Shown: positions 29,906 to 64,000 of the stretch, in pieces
Layout: every line of letters begins with the position of its first letter
How positions within the stretch are numbered: the stretch's first letter is position 1
DNA from: Gemmatimonadota bacterium
Lineage (GTDB): Bacteria; Gemmatimonadota; Gemmatimonadetes; Gemmatimonadales; GWC2-71-9
DNA length: 64,000 bases
NCBI GenBank assembly: GCA_036679605.1
Contig: JAZDCZ010000291.1
Coordinates: 1-64,000, forward strand
Direction: 5' to 3'
Notes under the pieces: generated by a model
Databases searched by the model: none
Seen by the model: the letters and a program-made list of their open reading frames with translations, nothing else
Told to the model about the DNA's origin: nothing
Program-made: the position numbers and the translations under genes

Positions 29906-30043
29906 TTTCTCTTCAACAACTTCTAGTTTTTGACGGGCGCCTTATGGCGTGGCCATTCGTGGGGCCCCAAATGGGACCCCAAATCCCTCGCACCTCGCAC
30001 TTTCTGGCCGGGCCTTGCATCTTCTAGCCCCATGACCGAAATC
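29906..30043 (+). repeat. About 140-bp leader repeat, with a second copy at about 35376-35518
   Basis: Both copies share TTTCTCTTCAACAACTTCT, TGGGACCCCAAA, CACCTCGCACTT and CTTCTAG..ATGAC. Confidence 0.8.
29995..30023 (+). promoter_or_regulatory. Putative leaderless promoter, copy 1
   Basis: TCGCAC-N17-CATCTT, with ATG 8 nt downstream (30032). Confidence 0.6.
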
Positions 30044-30676
30044 ACGTCCAAGCTTCCAGTGCCCTCGCCGACCGCTACCGTATCGAGCCACTTGGGCGAA
30101 GGTGGCATGGCGACGGTTGACCTGGTGCACGGTGTGAAGCACGACCGCTATTCACGATGGGACTCATGTCGCCGAGTTGCTGGAGTCACCGTGGCGCTGA
30201 CCGTTATGATGGCCTGTGCCACCTCGACACCTCCTTCCCTCACGCCGCTGGCCACACTTGAACACACAGAGGCATGGATTACCGAGTGGCTGCCGCGGCT
30301 GGCATCCGGTCGCATCCTCCGAGGAGAGATTGTCACGATACTGACCGTGACTGATGTAAGCGTTAAAGAGTGCGAGGTTCGCTTCCGCATGATCTGGGAT
30401 GCCGAGTTAGTAGTGGGGCCAGACGCCGGGCCCATCGGCCCGGGAACTATCCGAGAGGAGAGCTTCTCATGGGCCGAGGTCAGTACGATCAGCATCACAC
30501 AGTCGGAGGCGTCCGATGGCTTGGTCGGGATCAGTTTTGCCCTGCCGGGTGAAAAGACGGTCGACATCATTGCGTTCTCATTCGCCGACGCGCTCGCGAA
30601 CGCCTTTCGCCACTCACGGGACATGTGCCGAGCGCCGGTCTCTTCCGAGGATCTGAAGGCGAAGGTGGGGAATTGA
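30032..30676 (+). CDS. Chimeric ORF: kinase 5' stub + unknown putative lipoprotein + kinase 3' stub
   Basis: Begins MTEITSKL...HLGEGGMATV, contains VALTVMMAC (lipobox-like) and ends EDLKAKVGN. Confidence 0.7.
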   Translation: MTEITSKLPVPSPTATVSSHLGEGGMATVDLVHGVKHDRYSRWDSCRRVAGVTVALTVMMACATSTPPSLTPLATLEHTEAWITEWLPRLASGRILRGEIVTILTVTDVSVKECEVRFRMIWDAELVVGPDAGPIGPGTIREESFSWAEVSTISITQSEASDGLVGISFALPGEKTVDIIAFSFADALANAFRHSRDMCRAPVSSEDLKAKVGN

Positions 30677-33327
30677 CCGAGATCACGTCCAAGCTCTCGA
30701 ACGCCCTCGCGGACCGCTACAAAATCGAACGCCACTTGGGTGAAGGCGGCATGGCGACTGTCTACCTCGCGGAGGACTTGAAACACGAGCGTAAGGTTGC
30801 GCTCAAGGTATTGAAGCCCGAACTGGCTGCCGTTCTAGGTGCCGAGCGCTTCGTGCAGGAGATCAAGACCACCGCCAATCTCCAACACCCGCACATTTTG
30901 CCGCTGTTTGACAGTGGGACGGCGGGAAGGCGGGAAGGCGGGACGGAGTTCCTCTACTATGTGATGCCGTTTATCGACGGCGAGACGCTGCGCGACAAAC
31001 TCAACCGCGAAACACAACTCGGTATCGAGGAAGCGGTCCGCATCACCTGTGATGTCGCCGACGCGCTGGACTATGCGCACCAGCAAGGGGTGATCCACCG
31101 CGACATCAAGCCGGAGAACGTCCTGCTTCACAATGGCCGTCCGATGGTAACGGACTTTGGGATCGCCTTAGCGGTGAGCGCTGCGGCCGGCGGACGGATG
31201 ACCGAAACCGGACTCTCGCTCGGCACGCCGCACTACATGAGCCCCGAGCAAGCAACCGCCGAGAAAGACCTCACTGCGCGGTCGGACATTTACTCCCTCG
31301 GCAGTGTGCTCTATGAGATGCTGACTGGAAGCCCACCGCACGTCGGTTCGTCAGCGCAACAGATCATCATGAAGATCGTCGCGGAGGATGTGCAGCCCGT
31401 CACAGAGTTGCGGAAGTCGGTGCCGCCCCATGTAGCCGCCGCCACGACCAAATCGTTGGAGAACTTAGCGGCGGATCGGTTCGAGAGTGCGGCGAAGTTC
31501 GCGGAGGCGTTGACCAACTCCGCCTTTGTGTTCAACAGTGTCACCAGGATGCAGGCGACGCGTCCGTCCTCGGCGGGAACACAGAACCGCACCGCCGTCG
31601 CGTTTGCTGCATTATCAGGCGTACTTGCGCTCCTGCTTGGGCTGACGGTGCTGGGACAACCCAATGCGAACGTTTCCGACGTTGGCGTTGCCCGGTTCCC
31701 GCTGGTCGGCAATCCGAATTTCCGAATCAACACTGGCAGCACACAACCGTTCGCCATCTCGAGCGACGGTGGGACGATCATATTCGCGGCGGATACCGGC
31801 AACGGCATGCATCTGTGGGTCAGAACGCTCGCCGATCCAACGCCTCGGATGCTCGAAGGGACGGACCGGGCGACCCAGCCGGCAATTTCGCCCGACGGCG
31901 AGTGGATCGCGTTTGTCGTCGACAATCACATCATTCGCAAGGCACGGCTCGACGGCGGCGGTGTGGAAGAGGTCGCATCGATTGACAATATCTCGGCGTC
32001 GGTCAGTTGGGCGTCGTCTGATGAGATTCTTTTCGAGTTGATCGGCATCCCCGACGGTATTCATCGCGTAAGCGCGTTCGGCGGCCGCCCTGAACTGTTG
32101 ATCCCATTGGATACCACGATAAGTGAGGTTCGCCACCGACGCCCCTTTGTCCTTCACCACGAGCGTCGCGTGCTCTACGCAAGTATGTTGGCCGACGGCT
32201 CGTGGAGTCTCGCGATTTTTTCTCTCGACGACGGCCGACGCACACGTCTCGGGATCGACGGGATTCAAGCGCTCGGGGTGCTCGATGGCCATCTCGTGTA
32301 TTCGCGCGACGACGGGGCGCTGATGGCCGTTCCGTTCGACGTTCGGGGCATGCGAACGCGTGGAGATCCCCGACAATTGCGCGATCGCGTTTTGAGCAGC
32401 CCCACAGGTACGGCCGTGATTCTGTCCACCAATGGCAACCTCGTGTATCGCGCCCCGGTGGCCCAGCCCATGCGACTCTTCTTGGTCGATAGCGCAGGAT
32501 CCCTGACGCAACTCGGCACGTGGGTTCGCCCATTCGACACGCCCCGTTTCTCCCCAGATGACCGTTATGCCGCCGTGACGATTGCCGACGAAGGCGACAC
32601 GCAAGACCTCTGGATCGTGGATCGCGCAACTGGGGAGGCCACGCAGCTCACGCGGGGGGCACAGGCGCACCTACAAGATTGGACGCCGGACGGCTCGAGC
32701 CTCATATACTCCGAGGGCCGGGTACTCTGGACCATTCGCATCGATGGCAGCGGCGGACCGCGCCGAATAACAGCAGTAGAAGGCACCATCAGGGGGGCCT
32801 CGATCATGCCCGACGGCGCCTCGATCATCGTATCCCACTCGGACATCGGGACGCTCACCGAAGAACTCGTTCGGGCGTCGCTACTGGACAGCTCCGTTAC
32901 GCCCATCGGTTCGGCGGGTCGCCTGCGACCCTTCTTTCCACGAGTTTCACCCGACGGGCGCTGGGTCGCATACCATGGTCGCAACGACCGGGAAGTACAC
33001 ATCAGTTCGATCGATAGTGCTGGACGAGTACAAGTGTCCGATGCGGGCGGGTACGCACCGATCGTGTGGGGACCTAACAGTGACCGGGTGTACTACCACA
33101 CCTCTGCTGGGATCACGGTCGCCGAGATACGTACCAACCCTCGACTCGCAGTCGTCAGGCGTCGTGAGCTGCATGGATTTCCATTCTTCAGCACGGTGCA
33201 CGACGTGACTGACGATGGCAGGACGTTCTTGGTGGTGGCACCCGTGGGTGGGGGAAACGAGGACATCCTCGTCGCACTCAACTGGGGATCGGAGGTCCTG
33301 GCGATGCTGCGTAACCAGAACGATTGA
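30673..33327 (+). CDS. Ser/Thr protein kinase - TM - PD40/TolB-like beta-propeller
   Basis: GEGGMATV, VALK, HRDIKPEN, DFG and GTPHYMSPEQ; SPDG repeats. TTG start overlaps the upstream TGA. Confidence 0.92.
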   Translation: MTEITSKLSNALADRYKIERHLGEGGMATVYLAEDLKHERKVALKVLKPELAAVLGAERFVQEIKTTANLQHPHILPLFDSGTAGRREGGTEFLYYVMPFIDGETLRDKLNRETQLGIEEAVRITCDVADALDYAHQQGVIHRDIKPENVLLHNGRPMVTDFGIALAVSAAAGGRMTETGLSLGTPHYMSPEQATAEKDLTARSDIYSLGSVLYEMLTGSPPHVGSSAQQIIMKIVAEDVQPVTELRKSVPPHVAAATTKSLENLAADRFESAAKFAEALTNSAFVFNSVTRMQATRPSSAGTQNRTAVAFAALSGVLALLLGLTVLGQPNANVSDVGVARFPLVGNPNFRINTGSTQPFAISSDGGTIIFAADTGNGMHLWVRTLADPTPRMLEGTDRATQPAISPDGEWIAFVVDNHIIRKARLDGGGVEEVASIDNISASVSWASSDEILFELIGIPDGIHRVSAFGGRPELLIPLDTTISEVRHRRPFVLHHERRVLYASMLADGSWSLAIFSLDDGRRTRLGIDGIQALGVLDGHLVYSRDDGALMAVPFDVRGMRTRGDPRQLRDRVLSSPTGTAVILSTNGNLVYRAPVAQPMRLFLVDSAGSLTQLGTWVRPFDTPRFSPDDRYAAVTIADEGDTQDLWIVDRATGEATQLTRGAQAHLQDWTPDGSSLIYSEGRVLWTIRIDGSGGPRRITAVEGTIRGASIMPDGASIIVSHSDIGTLTEELVRASLLDSSVTPIGSAGRLRPFFPRVSPDGRWVAYHGRNDREVHISSIDSAGRVQVSDAGGYAPIVWGPNSDRVYYHTSAGITVAEIRTNPRLAVVRRRELHGFPFFSTVHDVTDDGRTFLVVAPVGGGNEDILVALNWGSEVLAMLRNQND

Positions 33328-33438
33328 CGCTGTCAAGATCCGTGATCTAACGGGAACTTGGGCACATTCTTGGGCACATCGACCCGGCAAACACACGCAA
33401 CTAGACGTAGGCCCCGCGCACAGGGCTTGCTCGAATCC

Positions 33439-33467
33439 TCGCCAAACCCCGCATCGCACCCCATCTT
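33439..33467 (+). promoter_or_regulatory. Putative leaderless promoter, copy 2
   Basis: TCGCCA-N17-CATCTT, with ATG 6 nt downstream (33474). Confidence 0.6.
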
Positions 33468-33473
33468 AGCCCC

Positions 33474-33608
33474 ATGACCGAGATCACCTCCCGGCTCTCG
33501 ACCGCCCTCTCCGACCGCTACCAGATCGAGCGCCGTCTCGGCGAAGGCGGAATGGTGACCGCCAATCCGATTTGGGCTGCGGGGCACCGGTGGGTCGACC
33601 GGGAGTAG
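33474..33608 (+). pseudogene. Kinase 5' stub (44-aa ORF)
   Basis: MTEITSRLSTALSDRYQIERRLGEGGMVT followed by unrelated sequence; it stops 8 nt before the next ATG. Confidence 0.85.
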
Positions 33609-33616
33609 CTGTGAAC

Positions 33617-35176
33617 ATGCCATTGACCATTGCTTCCGCGATTGTCTTGACCGCCGTTCTGGTCAGCGGGTGCGGACGAGGAAACAACAACGCCGGCGAC
33701 GGCGGGTCCACGATCACCGTTCTCTACGAAGGCGACGACTTCCTTCTTGGTCCCGCGGGAGATGACAGCCCAAAGTTCCTCGTGTTCCTTCCGCTGGTGC
33801 GAGGCTATGGGTCCGAGGCCCAGCCAAGCCTCGCCGAGCGCTGGGAGCACTCTCTCGACTACACGACCTGGACCTATCACCTGCGCCGTGACATCCGCTG
33901 GCACGACGGCGCGCCGGTTACTGCGCACGACATCGCGTTCTGCATCCGACTCTTCGCTCACCCCGATGTCCTCTTTGCTCAGGGCCAGATTGTCGGGGCT
34001 GACGCCACGGCCCTGGACGACTACACGCTCCAGATCACGTGGCAGAACCCCACGGGTCCGGCGGGTGCACTGTCCGGCTGGACGGTCTATTATCCAAAGC
34101 ACCTCTTGGAAGGACTTGACCCACAGGATTTCTACACCTTGGATTTCTGGACCAGCCCAATTGGCAACGGACCGTATCGGTACGTTCGGCACGTCCCGCA
34201 GACGATGATCGAGTTGGAGGCGAATCCCGATTACTACGCAGGACCGCCGGCGATCGAGCGCGTCGTGCTCAAGCTGAGCACGGCGAACAAGGTCATCGAA
34301 CTCACGAGCGGGAACGCAGACGTTGCGTACTATGTCCGTCCCGTTGACATCCTCAAGCTCCGCGCCGAGCCCGAGTTCCGAGTCTATCATCTGTTCGCGT
34401 TTAGTGAACCCCAGGCGATTCACTGGAACCAGCGACACCCGTTGCTTGCCGACTCGCGCGTTCGTCAGGCCCTCTCTCATGCGATCGATCGGCGGGAGCT
34501 CTCACGCGTGAACAATCTTCCGGACGAGATGCCTTTGGTGGGTGGCTTGTCACCAGAGGATCGCAGCGATCGACTCTACCGAGAGGGCAAGCTCGACGCG
34601 GGTCCTTCGTACGATCCAACCGCTGCGAGGCAACTCCTCGATGAGGCGGGCTGGGTCGATCGCAACGGCGACGGCGTACGCGAGCGAAACGGAGTCGCGG
34701 CCCGGTTCACGATGATCGTTCAGCAGGGCCGCCTCAGCGCTGTGGAATCGGCGGTGTTCATCCAAGACCAGCTCCGGAGGGTGGGTGTCCGGATGGAGAT
34801 CCGGCCGGTGGACCGGAGCGTATGGCACAACGTCTATCGCGCGGCCGATTTTGACGCCACGATCGGGGACGTCCCCAACGTGCCCCAATGGCTCCTTGAT
34901 CGCGACTTCTTCGGTGAAGGAACCAGGATCGGATACCGCAATCCCGAGATCGTGCGGTTACTGGAGACACTGACCACCGAGTTCGATCCTACCGTTCAGG
35001 ACACCCTCTACGCTCAGATCAACGAGATGCTCCGCCGCGACATGCCCGTCACGTTTCTGTTCCCGTATGTCGAGTCCATTGTGGCACACCGCAGGATCCA
35101 AGGAATTCGCACGCCAGAAAGGGCGAACCTCCTGTCGTACATTGCGGACTTGTGGATCGAAGAGGACCGCCGCTAG
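33617..35176 (+). CDS. ABC transporter substrate-binding lipoprotein, family 5 (peptide/nickel)
   Basis: Lipobox VSGC; LAERWEHS, WHDGAPVTAHD, PIGNGPY and VRQALSHAIDR. Confidence 0.9.
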   Translation: MPLTIASAIVLTAVLVSGCGRGNNNAGDGGSTITVLYEGDDFLLGPAGDDSPKFLVFLPLVRGYGSEAQPSLAERWEHSLDYTTWTYHLRRDIRWHDGAPVTAHDIAFCIRLFAHPDVLFAQGQIVGADATALDDYTLQITWQNPTGPAGALSGWTVYYPKHLLEGLDPQDFYTLDFWTSPIGNGPYRYVRHVPQTMIELEANPDYYAGPPAIERVVLKLSTANKVIELTSGNADVAYYVRPVDILKLRAEPEFRVYHLFAFSEPQAIHWNQRHPLLADSRVRQALSHAIDRRELSRVNNLPDEMPLVGGLSPEDRSDRLYREGKLDAGPSYDPTAARQLLDEAGWVDRNGDGVRERNGVAARFTMIVQQGRLSAVESAVFIQDQLRRVGVRMEIRPVDRSVWHNVYRAADFDATIGDVPNVPQWLLDRDFFGEGTRIGYRNPEIVRLLETLTTEFDPTVQDTLYAQINEMLRRDMPVTFLFPYVESIVAHRRIQGIRTPERANLLSYIADLWIEEDRR

Positions 35177-35242
35177 TGGACAGCCCCACCTCGAGCCGCC
35201 TTAGCACAACTCAAGGACTCTCACCGAAACCGGCGTCCATAA

Positions 35243-35362: not shown

Positions 35363-35469
35363 TTCCGGTAAACACTTTCTCTTCAACAACTTCTCGTTTT
35401 CGACTGTCGCACTTCGGAGCAGCCGTTTGCCGTTTGAGACCCCAAGTGGGACCCCAAACTCCGCACACC

Positions 35470-35518
35470 TCGCACTTCCTCGCCGAAACTCACACCTTCT
35501 AGAGCGATGACGGACATG
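35470..35518 (+). promoter_or_regulatory. Putative leaderless promoter, copy 3, with a highly decayed kinase stub
   Basis: TCGCAC-N17-CACCTT; ATGACGGACATG at 35507 aligns with ATGACCGAAATC. Confidence 0.45.
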
Positions 35519-38712: not shown

Positions 38713-38880
38713 CCCGCGAGAATAGAACAGGCCCGGCAGGACTCATCGTGTTAGCGGGAAACCGCGGAGCCGGGCTTTGGCAAAACTCTTTCAATGCACA
38801 TTCATGCACACGAGAGGGTTTTCGAGGGGTGACAGACCAGGGTCGGATAGCGAAAAGCCCTGTCTGACGGGGGTTCTGGA

Positions 38881-38973
38881 GTGGCCAGGGGTGGAATTGG
38901 TTGCGAAGCAGACGCGAGTGGGGTTGTGGCGGGGGGAGGACGTCAACCACCGACACGAGGATTTTCAGTCCTC
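38881..38973 (-). repeat. tRNA-Phe(GAA) 3'-half fragment split in the T-loop by a 45-bp insert
   Basis: The minus strand reads GAGGA-CTGAAAA-TCCTC GTGTC GGTGG TT [45 nt] CAATT CCACC CCTGGCCA. Confidence 0.8.
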
Positions 38974-39148
38974 CTACGGGGTGGTACTGACAGGTACCAG
39001 TGTACACCAGTGACGCAGAAACGGGCTTTGCTGCACCTTCCTCGGGGTGCTTCAGTGTCTTTCCGCGACACCAGTGTACAGGGGTTGGCGCACATTCGAG
39101 ACGCACGGAAGAGTCGTCAATGGGACCTAGGACGCTGGATTTGATCGC

Positions 39149-39177
39149 TGGCCACCTGAGCGTCGGCGCTGCATCTT
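39149..39177 (+). promoter_or_regulatory. Putative leaderless promoter, copy 4
   Basis: TGGCCA-N17-CATCTT, with ATG 6 nt downstream (39184). Confidence 0.6.
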
Positions 39178-39183
39178 AGCCCC

Positions 39184-40824
39184 ATGACCGAGATCACGTC
39201 CAAGCTCTCGACCGCCCTCGCCGACCGCTACAAGATCGAACACCGAGTCGACGTGTCACTTTCGATGAGGCGGCTCATGGGATTGGCGGCGATTCCCTTG
39301 ATCGCCAGCCTATGCCTCGGGTGCTCGTCGGCTGCTGAAGATCCGGACCGCAGCTCGACGATGACCATCCTCGCGGATCACAGCGACAAGACCATCAATC
39401 GCTACCAGACGAAGTTCCTGCTGTGGCTTCCACTGGCAAGCGGCCCGGAGTGGGCAGACGAATTCGAAGCAAGGCGTCGGCTCGCCGAATCGTGGGAACA
39501 CTCTCCGGACTATCGCACCTGGACGTATCACCTACGGGACGACGTGCGGTGGCACGACGGCGTTCCTGTCACCGCGCACGATGTGGCGTTCAGTCTCGAT
39601 CTGTTCGGCCACCCCGATGTGCTGTTCGCTGCGGGCGGCGGCTTGGCGTCCTTGATCGATTCGATGTCCGTGCCCGACGACCACACGCTCACGCTGGCTT
39701 TGACGATGCCGGCCTACCTGGGCGGCATGGGTTGGACGGTCTACTTTCCTAGACATCTGCTCCAGGACCTCGACCCCGCCGATTTCTACGAGTGGGACTT
39801 CTGGACGCGGCCGGTCGGCAACGGCCCCTACCGCTTCGTGCGGCATGTTCCAAAAACGGTGCTCGAACTCGAGTCGAACCCGGACTTTTACGCCGGGGAG
39901 CCAGCGATCAAGCGGGTGTTGGTGAAGTTCAGCAGCGCGAACCCGGTCATCGAGCTGACGAGCGGCACCGTGGATGTCGCTTCCAATATTGGGCCGACCG
40001 CTGTGTACCGGTTCAGAGCCGATCCCCGGTTCGTGGTCTACCACCGGTACGACTGGTCCGAGCTGCAGCTCATTTACTGGAACCAGCGCCACCCGCTGTT
40101 CGCCGAGGCCGCAGTTCGATTGGCGCTGAGCCACGCGATCGATCGGCGCGGAATCGCGCAAGCGATGGACTTGCCTGATGAGATGCCATTGATTGGCGGA
40201 CTGTCGAACCAGGTTCTGGGAGACCATCCGTATACACGCAGAGGGTGGGATCAGGGTCCGGCCTACGATCCTGCGACGGCGAAACGGCTCCTGGATCAGG
40301 CGGGCTGGATCGACAGCGACGGGGACGGGATTCGCGAGAGGGATGGCCGGGAGGCGCGTTTCGCCCTGTTGGCCAGGCGCGGACGGTACCCCGCTGCCGA
40401 GGCACTGGCGCTACTCATTCAGGATCAGTTGCAGCGCGTGGGAGTCTCGACCGAGATCCGCTCGATGGCAGGTGGCCTCGCCCGGGACGCGATCCGCTCG
40501 GGCGACTTCGATGCGGCGATTAGCTGGTTAGTAGACCAAGATCCGCTTGATGTCCTCGAGGAATGGTTCGGCGAGCCCTTGCCCTTCGGATACTATGACG
40601 CGGAAGCCGCGCACCTGCTCGAGGCAATCGGCGCGGAGCCCGATCCCAACGCCCAGGATACTCTCTACTCTCGGATCAACGAGATTTTCCGCCGCGACAT
40701 GCCGGTCACGTTCCTCTTCCCCGGGCTCGAGAACAACGCTTCCCACCGCCGGATCCAGGGATTCCACCCGAACCTGTTTCTGCACTTTGCGGAGGAGCTT
40801 TGGATCGAGGAGGGGAACCACTGA
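39184..40824 (+). CDS. ABC substrate-binding lipoprotein, family 5, fused in frame to a kinase 5' stub (native ATG 39265)
   Basis: MTEITSKLSTALADRYKIE, then MRRLMGL...CLGC lipobox; paralog of 33617-35176. Confidence 0.9.
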   Translation: MTEITSKLSTALADRYKIEHRVDVSLSMRRLMGLAAIPLIASLCLGCSSAAEDPDRSSTMTILADHSDKTINRYQTKFLLWLPLASGPEWADEFEARRRLAESWEHSPDYRTWTYHLRDDVRWHDGVPVTAHDVAFSLDLFGHPDVLFAAGGGLASLIDSMSVPDDHTLTLALTMPAYLGGMGWTVYFPRHLLQDLDPADFYEWDFWTRPVGNGPYRFVRHVPKTVLELESNPDFYAGEPAIKRVLVKFSSANPVIELTSGTVDVASNIGPTAVYRFRADPRFVVYHRYDWSELQLIYWNQRHPLFAEAAVRLALSHAIDRRGIAQAMDLPDEMPLIGGLSNQVLGDHPYTRRGWDQGPAYDPATAKRLLDQAGWIDSDGDGIRERDGREARFALLARRGRYPAAEALALLIQDQLQRVGVSTEIRSMAGGLARDAIRSGDFDAAISWLVDQDPLDVLEEWFGEPLPFGYYDAEAAHLLEAIGAEPDPNAQDTLYSRINEIFRRDMPVTFLFPGLENNASHRRIQGFHPNLFLHFAEELWIEEGNH

Positions 40825-40910
40825 GCTGTTCGCGCCCGAACCGCCATGTCCAGGGTCGCCTAACGGACTCGACCACAGCCCGGACCCAAACCATCAGCTG
40901 CACAGCGAAG

Positions 40911-40939
40911 TGGCCACCTGAGCCTCGGCACTGCATCTT
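40911..40939 (+). promoter_or_regulatory. Putative leaderless promoter, copy 5
   Basis: TGGCCA-N17-CATCTT, with ATG 6 nt downstream (40946). Confidence 0.6.
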
Positions 40940-40945
40940 AGCCCC

Positions 40946-44399: not shown

Positions 44400-44416
44400 C
44401 TGAAATCACCTCCAAG
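44396..44416 (+). pseudogene. Seven-codon kinase 5' stub overlapping the upstream stop
   Basis: TTG ACT GAA ATC ACC TCC AAG, the same TTGA junction as at 30673. Confidence 0.75.
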
Positions 44417-46257: not shown

Positions 46258-46404
46258 TTGATATGCTCCTGGAATATTGAGAGTGATATGATAAATGACT
46301 GTGCTACCCATGGAAGGACCAAATGTAACATGGGGTGCGGATCGAATGTCCACGCGTCCTTGATGACGCAGTGTTAGGCCGAGCGCGCCCTCTCAGTGCG
46401 GGAC

Positions 46405-46433
46405 TCGCCAAAACCGCCGTTTTGTTGCATCTT
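46405..46433 (+). promoter_or_regulatory. Putative leaderless promoter, copy 6
   Basis: TCGCCA-N17-CATCTT, with ATG 8 nt downstream. The region 46388-46483 resembles 61618-61710. Confidence 0.6.
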
Positions 46434-46441
46434 AGTCCGCC

Positions 46442-49007: not shown

Positions 49008-49262
49008 GTCGGGAGGGAATGACCAATGTCCAATAATCAATGCACAATGAGCAAGGATCTGCGCTTGGCAGCGTTGGACATTCTTCATTGGACATTCTGC
49101 GATTGATATGACAGAAATAACTGAGCGCCTCTCCAGTGCCCTCGCCGATCGCTACCGTCTCGAGCGCGAGCTGGGTTCTGGCGGCATGGCTACCGTCTAC
49201 CTCGCCCACGATGTGAAGCACGACCGCAAGGTCGCGGTAAAGGTGCTCCGGCCTGAACTTGC
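49006..49262 (+). repeat. About 255-bp near-identical repeat (copy at 51821-52077): kinase 3' stub + heptamer palindrome + kinase 5' end
   Basis: Direct alignment at offset 2815 with few mismatches. Confidence 0.92.
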
Positions 49263-51922: not shown

Positions 51923-54900
51923 ATGACAGAGATACCTGAACGCCTCTCCAGTGCCCTCGCCGATCGCTACCGTCTCGAGCGCGAGCTGGGTTCGGGCGGC
52001 ATGGCTACCGTCTTCCTCGCCCACGATGTGAAGCACGACCGCAAGGTCGCGGTAAAGGTGCTCCGGCCTGAACTCGCTGCGGTTCTCGGAGCGAAGCGCT
52101 TTGTGCAGGAAATCAAGACCACCGCCAATCTTCAGCATTCGCACATCCTGCCGCTATTCGATTCGGGTGAGGCAAGTTCTTTCCTTTATTATGTGATGCC
52201 GTTCATCGACGGAGAGAGCCTTCGCGACCGGCTCGACCGCGAGAAGCAGCTCTCGATTAACGAGGCGGTGCGGATCGCCAGCGATGTTGCGGACGCGCTT
52301 AACTATGCGCACCAGCGCAATGTCATTCATCGCGACATCAAGCCCGAAAACATCATGCTGCGTGACGAGCAAGTGCTGGTTATGGATTTTGGCATCGCGA
52401 TGGCGTTGGGCTCGATGGACGAGGCACGCCTTACCGCGACCGGCGCCTTGATTGGAACACCGCAGTACATGAGTCCGGAGCAGGCAGCCGGGGAATCTGT
52501 CGGTGCGGCAAGCGACGTGTATGCGTTGGGTTCTGTGTTGTACGAGATGCTCAGCGGCGCCGCGCCCCACCACGGTGCCAACATTCAGGCAATCATCGCC
52601 AGCGTGTTGTCGCGGGAGCCCGAACCCGTCCGCTCGGTACGGAGCGAGGTGCCGCCGCACATCGAGCAGGCAATTGCCCGAGCGCTCGCAATGGATCCGA
52701 CGGATCGGTTCGTCTCGATGTCGGAGTTTGCCCGTGCCCTTGCAACAACAGGGTCGACGCCTCGGCGCATCCGTGGACAGAAATCCTCGGAGCGCGGCTT
52801 GGCAGATAGCGAGCGACGCTACGCCACGGTGGTCCACTCCGCACTCACAGGGTATGCGACGCTGGTGGAGCAACTGCACCCGGACGACCTCGAGCAACTC
52901 CTGGAACGGATTCATGCGGCCGCACAGGAAATCGTGGAGAAGCATGGCGGTGTACTCAACAGTGCCTCCGACGAGGAATCGGTCGCGATGTTCGGTGCCC
53001 CGGTAGCGCACGAGGACGATGCGCTGCGGGCGGTGCGCGCGGCCCGTGAGCTTCAGCAGTTCCTCTGCAGTTCCGAAATCCAAGGCGAGTCTAGGCTCGG
53101 TGTCCGGACCGGCATCAGCACCGGCTTCGTAGTGGTGCGTGGGAGTCGGAGGGAAGGGGAGCTTTTTTCGATCGCCGGTGGCGTGGTGGGAGTAGCGGCG
53201 AGACTCGCGGCACACGCTGCGGACGGCGACGTGCTTGTGAGTGCCGAGTCCGAACGTTTACTCGTGCCGTTCTTCAGTACTGAGCCTCTCAAACCAGTGA
53301 CGCTCGGAGGCGAGTCTGAGATCACGCCACATCGGATTGTCGGGGAATCGGGGGCGCGAACACGGATCGAGGCCGCCGAGCGTGCGGGGCTCACGCTCTT
53401 CGCCGGACGCGACACCGAGATGCGCACACTCCAGGAGTGTCTCAAAAAGTCCGTCACCGGTGCCGGTCAGGTTATCTCGATCGTGGGCGAGGCCGGTGTG
53501 GGGAAGAGTCGCTTGCATTACGAATTTCTGCATCCGCTTGACCCTGCGGACGTGCGTGTGGTCGAGGGTCGATGCCAGTCCATTGCGGAGGCGACACCGT
53601 ATCTGCCCTTCATCGAGACCCTGCGGCAGGTCCTGAAGCCTGCAAGCGAGGTCGACCTGCAGGAGGCATCGGTAATCGACAGCGTTCGCGCACTGGATCC
53701 GGGGCTGGAAAACTATATTTCTCTCTATCTGCATGTGCTCTCGGTCCCGTCTAGCGAGCATACACCTCCCAAGCACCTCAAGGGCAAAGAGTTTCGGCGT
53801 GCGATGCTGGACGGACTCTCTGCCGTGTTCGCCTTGGCATCGAAACAGCGCCCGTTGGTGATGATGCTCGAAGATTGGCATCAAGCCGATGAAGCCTCGC
53901 AGGAAATGCTCAAGCATGTAGCTGGTATCGCCACGGCCTATCCGTTGATGATTGTCGTGACCGCACGTCCGCAGGTAATCCCCGACGTTGGAGAGGTGGA
54001 TCACCACACGATGATTCGCCTGGGGCCGCTCGAGGCAACTGCTTCGCTTGCCGTCATCTGTTCGGTGTTGGACGTGGATCAAGTCGCGGACGATCTCGGG
54101 CGACACTTGCATGAGCGAACGGCTGGGAACCCGTTCTTTCTCGAGGAAATCTGCCTTACGATGCAAGAGGAAAACCTGCTCAGAGTAGAGTCGGGACGGG
54201 CGGCCCTCATTGGGAATGTGGAATCGTTGCAGTTGCCCGATACGGTGCAGGCCGTGCTTCGCAGCCGGCTGGATCGCGTCGATCCCGATGCGCGTGAGGT
54301 CCTACGCCTTGCCTCTGTAGTCGGGCGAGAGTTCGCACGCGATATTCTCGAACGCGCGGTCCCCGACGCGTCTTCGCTTCCAGCCTCACTCGAAGCATTG
54401 ACCGCGCTCGGGATGATCCAGCAGATCAGCGTGGTTCCGGAGCCGGTATACCGCTTCAAACACGCTCTGACACAGGAAGCGGCATACGAGAGTCTCGTGC
54501 AGCATCAGCGAAAGACCCTGCACGGATTGGTCGGCAAAGTTCTCGAAGAGCACTACGCCGATCGTGCCGACGAGCAATCGGATATTTTCGCACACCATTT
54601 CAGTCTTGCGGAGCAGTGGCCCGCGGCCGTCCGATACGGACGTCGTGCCGCGGAAAAAGCTCACAACCTTGGCCAGTTCGCCAATGAGTCTCGGATGTTG
54701 GAGAATGTGCTCGGTTGGGTCAGGAAGCTCGACGACAGGACGACAGAGATCGAAGTCTTGCTTGCTTGGGAACGGACATGTGAGACCATTGGAAACCTCG
54801 ATCAACAGCAAACGATCATCGAGAACTTGCTGCTGCTGACCGAACCGGACGGCTACGATCGGCAGCGTGCCGAGACGTATATCAGACAGGGCGATCTGTG

Positions 54901-56317
54901 GACATTGCTCAGACACTTCGACAAGGCTCAGGATGTGCTGACGCAGTCGCTGGAAATCTGGCGCACGCTGTCGGATCGTGCCGGGGAACGCAACGCTCTA
55001 CGGAGTCTCGGGTTCCTCGGATGGCACCAGGGCGATCTCGAACAGGCAGTGACATCTGCGGAAGCGGCGCTCGCCATCGATCGTGAACTAGCCGACTTGG
55101 AGGCTGTCGCATTAGGTCTCAACAACCTTGGCATGGTGTTGAAGGCCGCCGGCCGGATCGACGAGGCGCTGCGCTATTTCGAAGAGGCTGTGCAACTGTT
55201 CGAAGACAAGCAGATCGAGGAGACCCACGCGCTTATCAATGCGGCGTCGATCTACCGCGACCGGGGTGAGATCGACAAGGCAATGCGTTACCTGCAGAAA
55301 GGATACGACGTCGAGCGTCGCCACCATCTGACCGGGCGCGAGTCGTTCATACTGACCGCGATGGCCACGATCGCTCAAATGCAAGGCCGGCCGGATGAGA
55401 GCATCCGCATCTACGAGGATTTGATTCGGCGGAGCCACTGGACTGGCGCAGGGGCTCCACGGACTCAGTGAATTGCTCGTCACACTGGGGCGGCTGAGAG
55501 ATGCGCTCCCGTACGTTCGTGAGAAGGTCGAGATCTTTGAGCGAACCGGTGAGCAAGCGCTGGAAATCGAAGGGCGACAGCGGTTGGCGGAGATCTACGA
55601 GGAGGAACTCCACGACTATGCTGCCGCGACCACGCAGTGGCACAAGGTCCGTGCCCTGCGGAGTGGCAGCGACGACGTGGCCGGTGAGTTGGAGGCGGCG
55701 GAAAGCCTCGCCAGACTCGCACGGCTGAGCAGCTCAGATGCGAACACGGTCATCACTTACCACCAGGATGCCTTGGAACTCGCCTGCAAGCTCGACGACG
55801 CGGGCAAGCAGGGGGACATGCTCAACACACTCGGCATACTTCATTGGCAACAGAAGGACTATGCCCAATCGCTATCGTGTTATGAGCGAGCACTCGAGAT
55901 CTTCCGCGAGCGTGCAGACCAGGTGCACGTCGGGCTGGTGCTCAACAGCATTGGAGCGGTCCTTCGGGACAGTGACCGGCTCGAGGATGCGCTGGATCAG
56001 CTCCGCGAGGCGTTGGACACCAACCGCCAGTCGGGGCAGCGGCGTCTCGAAAGCCATTCGCTTGCCACCTTGGGAGACGTAAGTGCCGCGCCGCGATTGG
56101 AGAGCCCGGACAGGCACTTGTGCAATACGAGGCGTCGCTCGAACTACGTAGAACACTTGGAGATCGGAATGGTGAGGGGTGGATGTTGTTTCGCGTGGCG
56201 CAGGTCGAGGCGGGCGAAGGTCGGGGAGATCGCGCTCTTGACTTGGTGGGCCAGGCTCGTAGGATTGCTGAAGAGTGTGGCGACGCCAAGCTCACGACGG
56301 CGTGCGAGGAATTATAG
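51923..56317 (+). pseudogene. Ser/Thr kinase + class III cyclase-like domain + STAND/AAA ATPase + TPR, frameshifted at about 55439 and 56090
   Basis: Kinase motifs; AMFGAPVAHEDDALRAV; Walker A GEAGVGKS and Walker B MMLED; GNPFFLEE; YRFKHAL. The TPRs continue in two further frames. Confidence 0.8.
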
Positions 56318-56637: not shown

Positions 56638-56648
56638 CCGCACGAGGT

Positions 56649-59312
56649 ATGACCGAGATCACGTCCAAGCTCTCCACGGCCCTCGCGGGCCGCTACCAGA
56701 TCGAACGCCACCTCGGCGAAGGCGGCATGGCCACCGTCTACCTCGCAGAGGACCTGAAGCACAAGCGCAAGGTAGCGGTCAAGGTACTGAGACCTGAGCT
56801 TGCAGCCGTGCTGGGTGCCGAGCGTTTCGTGCAGGAGATCACGACCACCGCGAATTTGCAGCACCCGCACATTCTCCCGCTGTTTGATTCGGGCGAGGCG
56901 GACTCCTTCCTTTATTATGTGATGCCGTTCATCGACGGCGAGACGCTGCGCGACAAACTCAACCGCGAGACCCAACTCGGCATCGAGGAAGCTGTCGACA
57001 TCACGACCGCCATCGCGGACGCCCTCGACTACGCCCATCGGCAGAACGTCATCCATCGAGATATCAAGCCAGAAAACATCCTGCTTCACGAGGGCCGTCC
57101 GATGGTGGCAGACTTCGGGATTGCGTTGGCGGTGAGTGCGGCGGCTGGTGGGCGCATGACGGAAACGGGGCTCTCGCTTGGCACACCGCACTACATGAGT
57201 CCCGAACAGGCGACTGCGGAGAAGGATCTCACGAATAGATCGGATATCTATTCGCTAGGAAGCGTGCTCTACGAGATGTTGACCGGTAGCCCGCCGCACG
57301 TCGGCTCGTCGGCGCAGCAGATCATCATGAAGATCGTGACGGACGAAGCACGGGCTGTGACGGAGCTACGCAAATCGGTGCCACCGCACGTTGCTGCGGC
57401 GACGGCGAAGTCGTTAGAGAAGTTGGCGGCGGATCGGTTCGAGACGGCAGCCAAATTCGCTGAGGCACTCAGCAACGCGGCGTTCACGCTGCCGACTGCA
57501 CAAGCAGAAGCGGCGGTGACGGCTGCGCCGGCGAGCAACCTTTGGAAACGAGTGAGCGTTGGAGTGACGGCAGTCGCGGCTCTGCTTGCCGTCGTTGCTC
57601 TGTGGGGGTGGTTGCGCCCACAACCCAAGACCGTCTTCCGACTCGGTGTGGGGTTTGCCGAAGGAGAACAAATCTTACGAGTCTCGACTAGGCGGTTTGC
57701 GATCTCCCCGGACGGAACCCGTATCGTCTATGTCGGAGCGGGTGTGGGAACCGGCGTGCGCCAGCTCTGGGTTAGGGAACTCGATGCGCTTCACGCCCAA
57801 CCACTGCCGGGGACCGACCTTCCACGGGCTGTGTTCTTTTCACCTGACGGGCAGTCGGTGGGGTTCGTTGACGGAGAGCCCGGCGATCTCAAGATCATTT
57901 CGATCGAAGGCGGTTCCGTTCGCACAGTTGCCGCCGACTCCGTCAATCCGTGGGGAGGTATGTGGGGACCAGACGGATGGCTGTACTTCACAGTGGCATC
58001 TGGTCGGCTCGCACGGGTGCGCGCAAGCGGTGGTCCTGTAGAGATCTTGGCTGCGCCGGATAGTTCTGAGACGGCTGGGGGGGGCGAGTACGATTGGCCG
58101 GAAGCACTTCCCAATGGCAGGGGTCTCGTCTTCCAGTTTTGGCAGAGTTCACTAGGCAACTCGGACATTGCTACGCTATCGTTGGAGACGGGTGAAGTAC
58201 GGGTGCTGACACACGCCGTGTCTGCGAAATACCTGCCCAACGGATACCTCCTGTATGTGACCATCGACGGATCGCTCTTCGTTCAGCGATTCGATCAGGA
58301 TGGCCTCGAGTTCACCGGTGAACCGATTGCGATTGAAACCGGTATTCGAATCGAGACGTTCGCCGGGACTGGACAGTTTGACGTATCCCGGAACGGCCAC
58401 TTCGTCTATCAGCCCGGTGGCAGCGGGGCCCAAGACCACATAGTCCGCGTGGATCGCTCGGGGTCCGCCACTGTCATCGATCCGGATTGGCGCGGCGGGT
58501 TCGAGACCGTCGCGCTTTCGCCGGACGGATCCCTCCTGGCTGTCGGAGTGGGGAGCGAAGGAGGGCAGATTTGGGTGAAGGAACTGGACAGGGGGCCTGC
58601 CAGACTGCTGACTTTTGAGGGGAATGGAAACAGCCGACCATCGTGGATGCCCGACGGTAGTGCCGTGACGTTCGTGCAGCCCGGAAATGGTTTGTGGAGC
58701 GCACGGTCAGATGGCGGTGCCCCGCCCCAGCAGGTTTACACGGGCCCGCAAGTCTGGGAAGCAACATGGTCGAGCGATGCGACGTGGCTTGTCGTTCGGA
58801 TCGGCGGTACGGGTACGGGTACGCGCGACATTCACGCCATTCGCCCCGGTATCGATTCGTCGGCCCGCGTGATCGTAGCCTCTCCCGCAGATGAATACGC
58901 CCCCGCCCTCTCTCCAAACAACCGTTGGCTAGCGTACGTTTCCAACGAGACGGGCCGGGAAGAAGTGTACGTTCGTCCGTTTCCTGATGCCGAGCGCGAG
59001 AAGCATCGGGTGACAGTCAGCGGCGGAACGGAACCGCACTGGTCACGGAGCGGCCGTGAGCTATTTGTCCGGAACGCTCGGGGCGAGATGGCCGTACATG
59101 CTGTCCGCTTCGATGACGAGACGTTCGCAGTGGAACCGGCCGAAGTACTTTTTGATGCAACGGAATACCTGAGCGACAACTACCATACAGCCTATGACGT
59201 CGCGCCCGACGATCAGCAGTTCTACATGATCGAGCAGTCCGAGATCATGGGCGGCGACCTCATCCTGGTGATCAACTGGTTCGAGGAGTTGAAGGCGAAG
59301 GTCGGGAACTAG
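56649..59312 (+). CDS. Ser/Thr protein kinase - TM - PD40 propeller
   Basis: Intact Hanks motifs, one TM, PD40 repeats; ends EELKAKVGN. Confidence 0.93.
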   Translation: MTEITSKLSTALAGRYQIERHLGEGGMATVYLAEDLKHKRKVAVKVLRPELAAVLGAERFVQEITTTANLQHPHILPLFDSGEADSFLYYVMPFIDGETLRDKLNRETQLGIEEAVDITTAIADALDYAHRQNVIHRDIKPENILLHEGRPMVADFGIALAVSAAAGGRMTETGLSLGTPHYMSPEQATAEKDLTNRSDIYSLGSVLYEMLTGSPPHVGSSAQQIIMKIVTDEARAVTELRKSVPPHVAAATAKSLEKLAADRFETAAKFAEALSNAAFTLPTAQAEAAVTAAPASNLWKRVSVGVTAVAALLAVVALWGWLRPQPKTVFRLGVGFAEGEQILRVSTRRFAISPDGTRIVYVGAGVGTGVRQLWVRELDALHAQPLPGTDLPRAVFFSPDGQSVGFVDGEPGDLKIISIEGGSVRTVAADSVNPWGGMWGPDGWLYFTVASGRLARVRASGGPVEILAAPDSSETAGGGEYDWPEALPNGRGLVFQFWQSSLGNSDIATLSLETGEVRVLTHAVSAKYLPNGYLLYVTIDGSLFVQRFDQDGLEFTGEPIAIETGIRIETFAGTGQFDVSRNGHFVYQPGGSGAQDHIVRVDRSGSATVIDPDWRGGFETVALSPDGSLLAVGVGSEGGQIWVKELDRGPARLLTFEGNGNSRPSWMPDGSAVTFVQPGNGLWSARSDGGAPPQQVYTGPQVWEATWSSDATWLVVRIGGTGTGTRDIHAIRPGIDSSARVIVASPADEYAPALSPNNRWLAYVSNETGREEVYVRPFPDAEREKHRVTVSGGTEPHWSRSGRELFVRNARGEMAVHAVRFDDETFAVEPAEVLFDATEYLSDNYHTAYDVAPDDQQFYMIEQSEIMGGDLILVINWFEELKAKVGN

Positions 59313-61662: not shown

Positions 61663-61671
61663 AGTACCGCC

Positions 61672-64000
61672 ATGACCAACACCGTCCGCCTCTCAACAGC
61701 ATTAGCCGACCGCTACCGCATCGAACGCCGCATTGGCGAAGGCGGCATGGCGACCGTGTACCTGGCCGAAGACTTGAAGCACAAGCGCAAGGTCGCGGTG
61801 AAGGTGCTGCGTCCTGAACTCGCTGCCGTCTTAGGCGCCGAGCGTTTCGTGCAAGAGATCACCACCACCGCGAATCTGCAACACCCGCACATCCTGCCCC
61901 TGTTCGATTCGGGTGAGGCTGACTCATTCCTCTATTATGTCATGCCGTTCATCGATGGCGAGACACTGCGCGGCAAACTCAACCGCGAAACGCAACTCGG
62001 TATCGAGGAAGCGGTCAACATCGCTACCGACGTTGCCGACGCGCTGGACTACGCTCACCAGCAGGGGGTGATCCACCGCGACATCAAGCCCGAGAACATC
62101 CTGATCCATAACGGTCGGCCGATGGTGGCGGACTTCGGGATTGCACTCGCCGTTAGTGCGGCGGCGGGTGGGCGCATGACCGAGACGGGCCTCAGTCTCG
62201 GCACGCCGCACTACATGAGCCCCGAGCAGGCGACCGCCGAGAAGGACCTCACTGCGCGTTCAGATGTGTATTCGCTCGGCAGCGTGTTGTATGAGATGCT
62301 CACCGGGAGCCCGCCGCACACCGGCGCATCGGCACAGCAGATCATCATGAAAATCGTGACGGATGAAGCCGCACCGGTCACCCAGCTCCGCAAGTCGGTG
62401 CCGCCCAACGTGGCGGCGGCGGTGGCAGAATCGCTGGCGAAGTTGCCGGCCGATCGATTTACCTCAGCTGCGGCATTCTCTGCGGCACTGGTAAACCCCG
62501 CGTTCACGTTGGCGGGCACAGCGACGGCACCTGCTGCTGCTGCGATTGCTAGGGCTGGGAACTGGAAGACGCGATTGGCGCTCTCAGCAGGACTCCTCGT
62601 AGCGGGCCTGAGCGGAGGGTTTCTGCTCCGGGGGGGAGACAGGTCCGAACCGCAGGTAGTACGCTTCGACCTGCGCATTCCTTCTGGACAACTTCTCGAC
62701 CTCCGGAATAACGAGGACGCCCCGTTTGCGATATCGCCGGACGGCACACGCATCGTCTATGCAGCAATCGACTCAGGTACGGCGGTGAACAAATTGTACA
62801 TCCGCCGGCTCGACCAGATGGAGGGCGTCGTACTTCCCGGTACCGAAGACGCCATTTCCCCGTTCTTCTCTCCGGATGGATTGTGGGTGGGATTCACCAC
62901 CGACGAGGACGAGAAGCTGAAGAAGGTGCCGGTGACCGGAGGCCCGCCGATCACCTTGGCGGACGATGTGCAGAACCAGTTCGCGGGCGCGTCGTGGGGT
63001 GACGACGGGTACATCGTGTACACGTCCAGGGGCTTCCATCTGTCACGAGTGAGTGGCGCGGGAGGAGTGCCGGAGCAACTCGCCGATCCTGACAGCGGCA
63101 ACGCAGCCATGTTTTGGCCATCGGTACTTCCTGGCGGCGAGGCGGTGTTATTCGAGCGCTGTCTCCAGACCTGTAACCAAACGGACCTTGCCGTGCTGGA
63201 CATCAAGTCAGGGTCGGTCGACGTGGTGGTGCCAGGGGCCACGCGAGGCTGGTACGCCAGCTCGGGGCACCTGTTGTACGCGACCGACGAAGGCGCCGTG
63301 TACGGAGTCTCGTTCGACCCAAGACGTCGCGAGGTCACCGGTGCCCCCGTGCCGCTGCTGGACGGGGTCCGGGTCGGGCTTGCCAACGGTTTGCGACTCA
63401 GCATCTCGGCATCGGGCGCCATGATGTACCTGACCGGTACCGCGGTGGCCGGTGTGCAGGTGGTGCAGGTCGATCGATCCGGACGGGAGACGGTCGTGAT
63501 TTCGCGGACAGGAGAGTACCAGCACCCGCGATGGTCACCCGACGGGGAGCGCATCGCGATGACGATATTCGGAGGATCTGGTGGTGCACAGATTTGGATC
63601 TACGACATTGCATCGGAGACGCTCTCGCAGCTCACCTTCGAGGGCGGCAATGTTCGCCCGACGTGGTCACCGGACGGTAGTCGGGTTGCCTTTTTCTCCA
63701 CGAGGTCTGATACGTCGGATCTATACTGGAAGCCGGCGGATGGATCGGGCCCTGCGGAACGAGTAGCCGAGGATGAGGATATTCTGAACGCGGGGACGAC
63801 GTTTTGGACCAGTGACGGATCTTGGATAGTCTTCGACGGTTTGGGAGAGGCGGGTGCTTCGGACGAGAACATCTATGCCGTGGGGACCGGCGAAGATCGC
63901 ACTCGTCAGACGGCGGTCGCCACCGGTGCTGGAGAAGAGACGGGCGCCGTGTCGCCCAACGGGGAGTGGATCGCGTACGGCTCCGATGAATCCGGCCCGT
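61672..64000 (+). CDS. Ser/Thr protein kinase - TM - PD40 propeller, running off the window (absent from the ORF track because there is no stop)
   Basis: MTNTVRLSTALADRYRIERRIGEGGMATV..., HRDIKPEN, DFG and SPDG repeats. Confidence 0.92.
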   Translation, partial: MTNTVRLSTALADRYRIERRIGEGGMATVYLAEDLKHKRKVAVKVLRPELAAVLGAERFVQEITTTANLQHPHILPLFDSGEADSFLYYVMPFIDGETLRGKLNRETQLGIEEAVNIATDVADALDYAHQQGVIHRDIKPENILIHNGRPMVADFGIALAVSAAAGGRMTETGLSLGTPHYMSPEQATAEKDLTARSDVYSLGSVLYEMLTGSPPHTGASAQQIIMKIVTDEAAPVTQLRKSVPPNVAAAVAESLAKLPADRFTSAAAFSAALVNPAFTLAGTATAPAAAAIARAGNWKTRLALSAGLLVAGLSGGFLLRGGDRSEPQVVRFDLRIPSGQLLDLRNNEDAPFAISPDGTRIVYAAIDSGTAVNKLYIRRLDQMEGVVLPGTEDAISPFFSPDGLWVGFTTDEDEKLKKVPVTGGPPITLADDVQNQFAGASWGDDGYIVYTSRGFHLSRVSGAGGVPEQLADPDSGNAAMFWPSVLPGGEAVLFERCLQTCNQTDLAVLDIKSGSVDVVVPGATRGWYASSGHLLYATDEGAVYGVSFDPRRREVTGAPVPLLDGVRVGLANGLRLSISASGAMMYLTGTAVAGVQVVQVDRSGRETVVISRTGEYQHPRWSPDGERIAMTIFGGSGGAQIWIYDIASETLSQLTFEGGNVRPTWSPDGSRVAFFSTRSDTSDLYWKPADGSGPAERVAEDEDILNAGTTFWTSDGSWIVFDGLGEAGASDENIYAVGTGEDRTRQTAVATGAGEETGAVSPNGEWIAYGSDESGP

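Follow-up and report, generated by a model that had tools for sequence, protein, structure and literature searches.

Ends of a protein kinase gene family in front of unrelated genes in a Gemmatimonadota genome

The first 64 kb of a 90-kb contig (C214) in a Gemmatimonadota genome bin (G000; 6.72 Mb in 434 contigs), which we refer to as the window, carry on the forward strand, from about 29.9 kb onward, a run of serine/threonine kinase genes with single unrelated genes in between. In front of several of these unrelated genes lie 5' stubs, that is, copies of the first codons of the kinase genes together with the sequence that precedes their ATG, as described in an earlier note on this DNA. The stub observation is confirmed and is genome-wide. 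We interpret it, with slightly more trust than doubt, as the birth and death of a large kinase family, in which gutted copies leave their ends behind, the retained promoter-like box probably drives the gene downstream and the resulting modules serve as recombination joints.

Side-by-side alignments identified six of the seven claimed 5' stubs (30032, 33474, 39184, 40946, 44396 and 46442) as real kinase gene starts, which copy the first kinase codons (MTEITSKLSTALADRY...) and the sequence before the ATG. The kinase homology of these stubs stops at approximately +120, +88, +61, +30, +21 and +42, respectively. The seventh (35376..35517, forward strand; ATG 35507) is weak and comprises a promoter-like region and about 8 nucleotides (nt) of kinase start; the 142 nt upstream of 35507 are 73% identical to the region before 30032 (29906-30042). 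All of the window stubs are on the forward strand, in line with the co-orientation noted earlier, and the 48-mer given in the same note has two matches at three or fewer mismatches versus none in 100 shuffles. A stub module consists of a promoter-like box (about 36-37 nt) and 8-147 nt of kinase coding sequence. In the class-1 upstream type, the box CTGGCCACCTGAGCTTCGGCACTGCATCTTAGCCCC stands immediately before the ATG; the copies at 39148 and 40910 have two mismatches each to the majority form (two matches of the 36-nt box versus none in 100 shuffles). The class-2 type has a GC hairpin followed by ...GTTGCATCTTAGTCCCGCC and is found at 46442 and before the kinase gene at 61672, while the stub at 33474 has a related upstream end, CATCTTAGCCCC. 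In the overlap type, at 30673 and 44396, a kinase stop codon overlaps the next TTG start (TTGA), as it does between consecutive genes in the tandem kinase arrays of the genome.

Kinase 3' stubs had also been claimed, at the end of the open reading frame (ORF) starting at 30032 and, at 49006, after the gene for a MaoC-like dehydratase, and both are real kinase gene ends. The sequences at 30653-30672 and 44376-44395 match the kinase 3' motif with one mismatch each, and the 30032 ORF terminates in a kinase end, ...EDLKAKVGN*. The stub at 49006 (49006..49107, forward strand) leads into the kinase gene at 49108; its positions 49006-49052 consist of the last 15 nt of a kinase gene and a copy of the intergenic region at 51821-51922. 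The 30032 ORF itself is not the cargo lipoprotein that it had been taken for. It is part of a decayed kinase relic (29906..30676, forward strand) with a promoter-like upstream region, a frameshifted 5' end from 30032 and a kinase 3' end. Its DNA homology reaches about +120 and its protein similarity about +300 (residues 1-100 are approximately 31% identical to the kinases), followed by some 290 nt without assignment and then the kinase 3' end, whose TGA (30676) overlaps the TTG start of the kinase gene at 30673.

The same remnants recur throughout the genome. A tblastn search with five window kinases located 109 kinase-domain places and 104 kinase starts in G000, 28 of them of the MTEIT type. 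With 25 MTEIT-type genes (plus 60 nt upstream and 30 nt downstream) as blastn queries against the genome, we recorded 77 places outside full genes and scored as 5' stubs those whose homology begins at +35 or earlier and ends at +200 or earlier. The 77 places include 35 5' stubs, 13 3' pieces, about 14 internal fragments (seven loci) and eight full genes or arrays past the margins; the remainder are promoter-only bits or kinases cut by contig ends. Ten of the 3' pieces are short ends of 80 nt or less; the other three are longer remnants (C19 and C26) or an internal match (C306) and not orphan stubs. A same-strand ORF of at least 80 amino acids begins within 500 nt after 32 of the 35 5' stubs. 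Among the 25 ORFs that follow stubs outside the main genes of the window, 12 have no Pfam family and 13 have one, with representatives of FAA hydrolase (two), RidA, DUF2306 (two), MFS, MscS, TPR, histidine kinase, FAD oxidoreductase and Phd antitoxin families.

The occurrence of stubs also extends to relatives. A 104-nt query gave box-containing matches in only G000 and its congener G001 among the 31 genomes searched. A search with the 55 N-terminal kinase residues gave 93 matches in G048, a closed single-contig genome from a different genus. We picked eight short-frame matches there, five of which were readable: four are stubs of 46-64 codons, one of them fronting a sulfatase gene, and the fifth is a kinase with a premature stop (locus L049).

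Several lines of evidence link the stubs to kinases lost in place. The stubs reach into the kinase domain (YKIERHLGEGG...) and share their upstream region with full kinases. For example, the stub at 39184 shares with the full kinase C419_148984 a 333-nt upstream flank beyond the box. The inter-kinase spacer concerned (38785..39147, forward strand) is also found upstream of the stub C419_139081, and its match to the region upstream of C419_148984 (85.7% over 398 nt) extends into the stub. The most informative case is a cassette with an FAA-hydrolase gene, present on contigs C265 and C88 of G000 and C54 of G001, in which the stub joint is at +38 in all three copies; the joint is therefore older than the split of the two species. 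After the FAA-hydrolase gene, the G001 contig carries a class-1 box followed by a kinase gene that has lost its sensor part, so that the kinase domain runs directly into a kinase 3' end. The aligned slot on C265 has the same box and 36 nt of kinase, then a RidA gene; on C88 the slot is occupied by another stub, which is in frame with a lipoprotein gene that seems to use the stub start codon. The strain comparison of gene order put forward in the earlier note thus extends to one orthologous slot, with a kinase in G001 versus a 36-nt stub in G000; no sister site, empty or filled, was found for the other stubs. A DNA search of positions 29300-49200 in five relatives returned kinases for nearly all matches, and in G001 the solute-binding protein, PF04199 and oxidase genes of this region had no match at E ≤1e-10; because of this, the slots in the window are without an orthologous comparison.

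Further stages of decay are visible on contig C118 of G001, which carries a kinase with an in-frame internal deletion, a promoter-only piece ahead of two small ORFs and a 75-nt 5' stub that passes straight into a 3' stub at the repeat GGCGAAGG, which occurs at both kinase gene ends. In four of 25 kinases, an exact 11-nt repeat, GGCGAAGGTGG, lies at +67 (LGEGG) and 19 nt from the end (KAKVG), as at 41871-41881 and 44381-44391, and four further kinases carry 7-8 nt of it. We considered this repeat as a general cause of whole-gene deletion and rejected it, because the 11 nt are present in only four of the 25 kinases and explain one joint, that on C118. The modules, moreover, appear to be under no particular constraint. 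Divergence among the three FAA-hydrolase cassettes is 8-14% in the box, 13-22% in the stub and 12-15% in the leader (three to eight differences each), compared with 12-19% at third codon positions of the hydrolase gene; in the C88 copy, the stub ATG has become ACG. In this one cassette, and with these small counts, there is no sign of selection on the module, and box and stub drift at the silent-site rate.

The genes behind the window stubs are complete by themselves. Two family-5 solute-binding proteins, a multicopper oxidase and a PF04199 protein do follow stubs as had been claimed; the 30032 ORF is a relic and the stub at 44396 is without cargo. The module at 33438..33561 (promoter-like region and 88-nt stub, ATG 33474) precedes a solute-binding protein gene (33572..35176; SBP_bac_5, E 2.6e-70) whose likely start is ATG 33617, with its own signal peptide; the stub ORF stops at 33606-33608, 8 nt before this codon. 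The second solute-binding protein, a lipoprotein (39265..40824; SBP_bac_5, E 2.3e-73), follows the module at 39148..39244 (class-1 box at 39148-39183 and 61-nt stub, ATG 39184); it has its own ATG (39265) and lipobox signal peptide 18 nt past the stub, with which it is in frame. The module at 40910..40975 (class-1 box at 40910-40945 and 30-nt stub, ATG 40946) is likewise in frame with the next gene, a PF04199 family lipoprotein (40991..41788; E 7.3e-15) with its own ATG. At 46377..46483, a class-2 upstream region and a 42-nt stub (ATG 46442) lead to the multicopper oxidase (46522..48426; Cu-oxidase_3, E 6.4e-29); the stub ORF ends in a TAA (46520-46522) that overlaps the oxidase ATG (TAATG). 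The MaoC-like dehydratase gene comes next (48600..49007; MaoC_dehydratas, E 4.3e-24), its stop abutting the 3' stub. The 21-nt stub at 44396..44416, whose TTG overlaps the stop codon of the kinase gene at 41805, is followed by a hairpin and a convergent M28 peptidase gene (44551..46353; Peptidase_M28, E 1.1e-36). All of these features are on the forward strand except the peptidase gene.

Each cargo has its own Shine-Dalgarno sequence, start codon and signal peptide 15-160 nt past the stub, and the cargo families are mutually unrelated. Three ORFs (30032, 39184 and 40946) do read in frame from the stub into the next gene, in agreement with the in-frame fusions reported earlier. Since the cargo genes are complete by themselves, these fusions are probably incidental N-terminal extensions, a misannotation by gene callers, with predicted false extensions of 27 residues in the gene at 39184 and 15 residues in that at 40946. 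Selection on the reading frame of the stub was considered and rejected: about five of 25 stubs are in frame with their cargo, which is near chance, and one stub lacks an ATG. On C88, at about 28102 (locus L024), a lipoprotein gene with apparently no start of its own (MPENTVQLSTALVGKLLPIAVAIALAGC...) continues in frame from a 37-nt kinase stub, which would provide both the start codon and the N-terminal part of the signal peptide. The PF04199 gene, whose paralog on contig C326 is without a stub, had been listed as a cyclase. Pfam names the family 'Putative cyclase', which is distinct from the nucleotide cyclase domain (PF00211) of the kinase at 51923, and therefore nothing marks the gene at 40991 as sensory. 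At the joint behind the stub at 39184, the sequence ACCGAGTCGACGT (39242-39254) resembles the kinase start bases +4 to +16 (10 of 13) and may be a second tiny stub, or chance.

Dispersed modules also coincide with changes of neighborhood. Homology blocks that are 87-97% identical among C265, C301, C87, C88 and C54 of G001 begin at one box and end inside the next module. The FAA-hydrolase unit has three different downstream contents, the RidA unit has different neighbors on both sides on C265 and C301, and a DUF2306 unit is common to C265 and C87; C265 continues into C169, then one more module. Because the blocks begin and end in modules and the same cassette has different neighbors, the conserved ends behave as recombination joints, and ordinary homologous recombination among these dispersed 80-130 nt repeats probably reshuffles the neighbors. 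The earlier note had pictured an integron-like but integrase-free shuffling platform. Its swapping component agrees with the blocks that end in modules and with the lack of any integrase among the ORFs scanned. Its other component, dedicated capture of cargo, is not supported; against it stand the kinase in the orthologous slot, the decay intermediates, the silent-rate drift and the translation signals kept by the cargo.

The modules also lack the hallmarks of integrons and of mobile repeats. We found no integrase, recombinase or transposase Pfam family among 39 ORFs of contig C214 (17 in 29930-64000 and 22 in 19138-29748 and 64-90 kb, the first 19 kb of the window being outside the scan), as the integrase-free label implied. 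Six modules folded into hairpins no better than their shuffles (z from -0.63 to +0.53), and no inverted repeats of 8 nt or more were detected in three modules. With neither an IntI integrase nor an attC-type hairpin, and with joints at 28 positions from +8 to +147, the modules do not resemble integron cassettes; nor do they resemble miniature inverted-repeat transposable elements or repetitive extragenic palindromes, as they have no inverted repeats and a variable 3' end. The varied position of the joints argues against a site-specific cut, as the earlier note had concluded from stub length. Truncated homology, decay intermediates and a kinase or another decay state in the orthologous place are, in turn, what gene remnants present. 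The definition of putative mobile promoters asks for stretches of 50 nt or more, upstream of genes without homology to each other, that are at least 80% identical within one genome. It also applies to the modules, whose identity is 83-97% over 60-120 nt and whose distance to the starts of cargos of unrelated Pfam families is 15-200 nt, an interval other than the -150 to -50 used for that class.

The mechanism that we propose begins with a kinase family that duplicates and dies rapidly, its copies being gutted by deletion or replacement so that the front and back ends of the gene would stay behind as relics. The retained promoter-like box would probably drive the gene now downstream. Short stubs would persist because only joints near the promoter and the cargo start would give good expression, the rest having presumably been eroded. 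The dozens of near-identical modules would then be ordinary sites of homologous recombination, at which neighbors could be reshuffled within and between strains with no need for a dedicated recombinase.

Several findings weigh against this explanation, chief among them the distribution of breakpoints. The 5' remnants end at +8, 20, 21, 22, 30, 36, 37, 37, 38, 38, 42, 44, 46, 47, 47, 50, 57, 57, 59, 63, 65, 78, 81, 88, 112, 120, 146 and 147. Mean pairwise DNA identity among 20 aligned paralogs is 0.67-0.88 from nt 28 to about 825 and 0.26-0.61 in the sensor part, and it climbs again only over the last 60 nt or so; with a kinase domain that is 67-88% identical among paralogs, a remnant of any part of the domain is therefore detectable. 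Yet the end point lies within 150 nt of the ATG in 35 5' remnants, and in this subfamily a single one (C212, 857 nt) has its end in the range from 150 to about 1900 nt. Such crowding of breakpoints at the gene ends is not accounted for by simple random decay. Five independent cargos share a joint at +36 to +38, a possible mild hot spot. No kinase comes after at least six of the 3' stubs (10-20 codons), and the keeping of a neighbor's ribosome site therefore does not explain them. Three consecutive small genes on C265, each with its own box and stub, would require three separate kinase losses. Of 19 strict class-1 boxes, sorted by eye, only four front a kinase and 15 front something else (the box is largely invariant across these 19 copies, in part as a consequence of the search design). 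A search for the sigma-70 consensus in 29800-49300 gave no matches versus a mean of 4.7 in shuffles, a result that carries little information because the promoter types of this organism may differ; a sigma-54 reading of the box was rejected by eye, its GG-to-GC spacing being two bases too short. Lastly, the bin is large and impure (6.7 Mb with 6.3% contamination versus 2.4-4.4 Mb in the 30 relatives searched), and copy numbers could for this reason be inflated by co-binned strains. The C265 and C88 copies of one cassette are as divergent as G000 and G001 (15% versus 12% at silent sites), and accessory contigs from more than one population may be present in the bin.

Because the end-crowded breakpoints and the orphan 3' stubs are unexplained, we also entertain, as an unlikely alternative, an active exchange of cassettes without a recombinase. 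The kinase ends would serve as portable homology arms and expression signals, slots would swap their contents and new genes would be captured by homology-facilitated illegitimate recombination. Such an exchange would suit the clustering of breakpoints at the two most conserved gene ends, the 3' stubs that no kinase follows, the mosaic cassettes with breakpoints in modules and changing neighbors, and the sets in which a cargo is bracketed by a 5' and a 3' stub (the oxidase and MaoC genes at 46442-49052, an MFS transporter gene on C419 at 136010-134408, and further sets on C169, on C26 and at 30032-30676). In one slot flanked by orthologous kinases, G000 has a kinase and G001 two small ORFs. Further, in 10 of 11 other genera no kinase lies less than 1.5 kb from the FAA-hydrolase ortholog; this says little, because the other neighbors, those upstream included, also differ among genera in which gene order is scrambled anyway. 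Homologous exchange, however, moves old joints and makes no new ones, and no donor-recipient pair showing capture was found. About 30 of the 35 stubs lack a 3' counterpart, drift of the module proceeds at the silent rate, with one copy devoid of its ATG, and kinase decay is seen directly at the same slot. It is equally doubtful that the two kinase ends are natural homology arms with a built-in promoter, such that any gene landing between them would be expressed and passed among dozens of slots, recurrently in the Gemmatimonadota.

A mobile promoter module, copied in front of genes with a variable number of first codons by short-tract gene conversion or templated repair where a kinase never stood, seems to us improbable. 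The module does have a constant 5' homology edge at the box and a variable 3' edge, strict boxes mostly front non-kinase genes (15 of 19), the three small genes in a row on C265 each have one, and the arrangement fits the putative mobile promoter class (PMC3575422). But the kinase came first at the one slot with an orthologous comparison, the stub at 39184 keeps 333 nt of kinase flank beyond the box, and two stubs (44396 and C426_46721) lie directly behind an intact kinase without a box. Copying of a promoter also leaves the 3' stubs unexplained, and terminal inverted repeats are absent. Least credible of all, with very little probability left to it, is an artefact of assembly or binning in which repeat-driven misjoins created false stub-cargo joints. 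The bin of 434 contigs, with its contamination and the divergence of C265 from C88, invites the suspicion, as do the contigs of the Logan assemblies, which end within the repeated box. Wrong joining at a shared repeat, however, would lead into another kinase and not into unrelated DNA. Logan contigs of run X1 match exactly across the joints at about 39245, 40975, 44416 and 46483 with an even depth of 13-18, one of them (42380-44787) spanning the stub at 44396. One joint is common to G001 and the same pattern is found in the single-contig genome G048. The artefact is thus largely refuted for the joints themselves. Read support, which the earlier note had made a point of, consequently covers four joints, and cassette order depends on the original assembly because the Logan contigs break inside the box. 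Apparent Logan joints such as 39227 to 40911 were considered as structural variants and rejected as cross-matches between module copies. On balance we retain birth and death of the kinase family as our preferred explanation.

The kinases themselves bear out the earlier count of six, as a Pfam Pkinase domain was found in all of them (E 1e-45 to 6e-50), and all are on the forward strand. Five have PD40 propeller repeats C-terminal of the kinase domain: those at 30673..33327 (E 1e-45; its TTG start is the one overlapping the relic stop), 41805..44399 (E 7.7e-49), 49108..51837 (E 8e-46), 56649..59312 (E 1.6e-48) and 61672..64000 (E 1.6e-49; class-2 upstream region), the last continuing beyond the window. 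The kinase at 51923..55471 (1182 amino acids) has an unusual architecture, with Guanylate_cyc, AAA_16 and TPR domains instead of the propeller, and a separate gene for a TPR protein lies downstream. Across the genome, a motif like (C)ATCTTAGG or ACCTTAGG was seen by eye 5-8 nt before the start codon at about 35-40 of the 104 kinase starts, in several kinase subfamilies otherwise dissimilar upstream; it may be a putative -10-like promoter element for leaderless or short-leader transcripts.

According to Pfam, the genes interleaved with the kinases encode two family-5 solute-binding proteins, a secreted PD40 protein, an amidohydrolase, the PF04199 protein, the multicopper oxidase, the MaoC dehydratase, a TPR protein and two minus-strand peptidases (M28 and M1), and the remainder of contig C214 is alike, with six more kinase starts and further hydrolases. 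The secreted PD40 gene (35752-37195) appears to be split between overlapping frames, 35752-36135 and 35966-37195, pointing to a frameshift or a sequencing error. It was considered as a remnant of a kinase sensor part and rejected, as 35966-37195 has only repeat-level similarity (25-45%) and no kinase 3' motif. Similarly, an amidohydrolase gene is divided between the ORFs at 23605-24465 (N-terminal part of Amidohydro_1) and 24450-24770 (C-terminal part), likely by a frameshift. A short repeat at 35573-35715, unrelated to the kinase modules, matches C170 (33458-33601, 81%) and C334 (53227-53313, 93%). The Rfam matches within the window are three tRNAs and nothing else. One of these tRNA genes (28605..28678, forward strand; RF00005, 65.4 bits) lies just upstream of the kinase-rich stretch and has by it a 76-nt direct repeat (28660-28735 and 28815-28890, 84% identical); near 26-28 kb, GC content climbs from about 0.56 to about 0.61. 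A tRNA-linked island boundary may mark the start of the kinase-rich stretch. A kinase stub also stands beside a tRNA gene on contig C4 of G001.

If our reading holds, one expanding and collapsing kinase family has seeded a genome with dozens of near-identical modules of box and first codons, and unrelated exported enzymes and binding proteins would have come under kinase-type control. The modules would also provide many sites for homologous recombination in gene-rich islands, with consequences for genome stability, and gene callers will predict false N-terminal extensions at such loci. The bias of the breakpoints to both gene ends is the part that could conceal a real mechanism. Word searches of the open-access literature returned no account of a two-ended breakpoint bias or of hollowed-out kinase genes in these phyla.

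The closest published class is that of putative mobile promoters, or promoter reuse. These resemble the modules described here in that highly similar upstream sequence precedes unrelated genes of one genome with no known mobile element attached, and the survey that defined them filtered out promoters extending into coding sequence (Nijveen, Matus-Garcia and van Passel, 2012; PMC3575422). In the present case, the repeated piece derives from one gene family, enters its coding region and is matched by 3' stubs; it occurs dozens of times per genome and can be traced at one slot to the loss of the parent gene. Integron cassette arrays likewise consist of co-oriented single-gene units of unrelated function with a recurring short element between them, yet here no integrase, hairpin site or fixed joint was found and each unit has a promoter-like box. 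Paralog families that evolve by birth and death undergo pseudogene erosion, with tandem duplication, frameshifts, internal deletions and terminal remnants. All of these are present here, but the remnants strongly favor the two gene ends (at most the first 150 nt and at most the last 80 nt), and most of them stand tight against intact foreign genes. The Borrelia family of upstream homology box genes (ospE/ospF/erp), a functional analogue, reportedly combines a conserved upstream region and first codons, common to genes that otherwise differ, with recombination between these genes. There the common piece lies on prophage-plasmids and codes for a functional lipoprotein leader, whereas here it is a kinase start that mostly hits a stop before the cargo's own start. 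Finally, the orphan toxin ends of Rhs and contact-dependent inhibition (CDI) loci are displaced gene ends with short homology that lie beside the main gene and are able to recombine with it. Those ends are alternative 3' tips of one expressed gene; in the kinase family, by contrast, whole unrelated genes lie between the ends.

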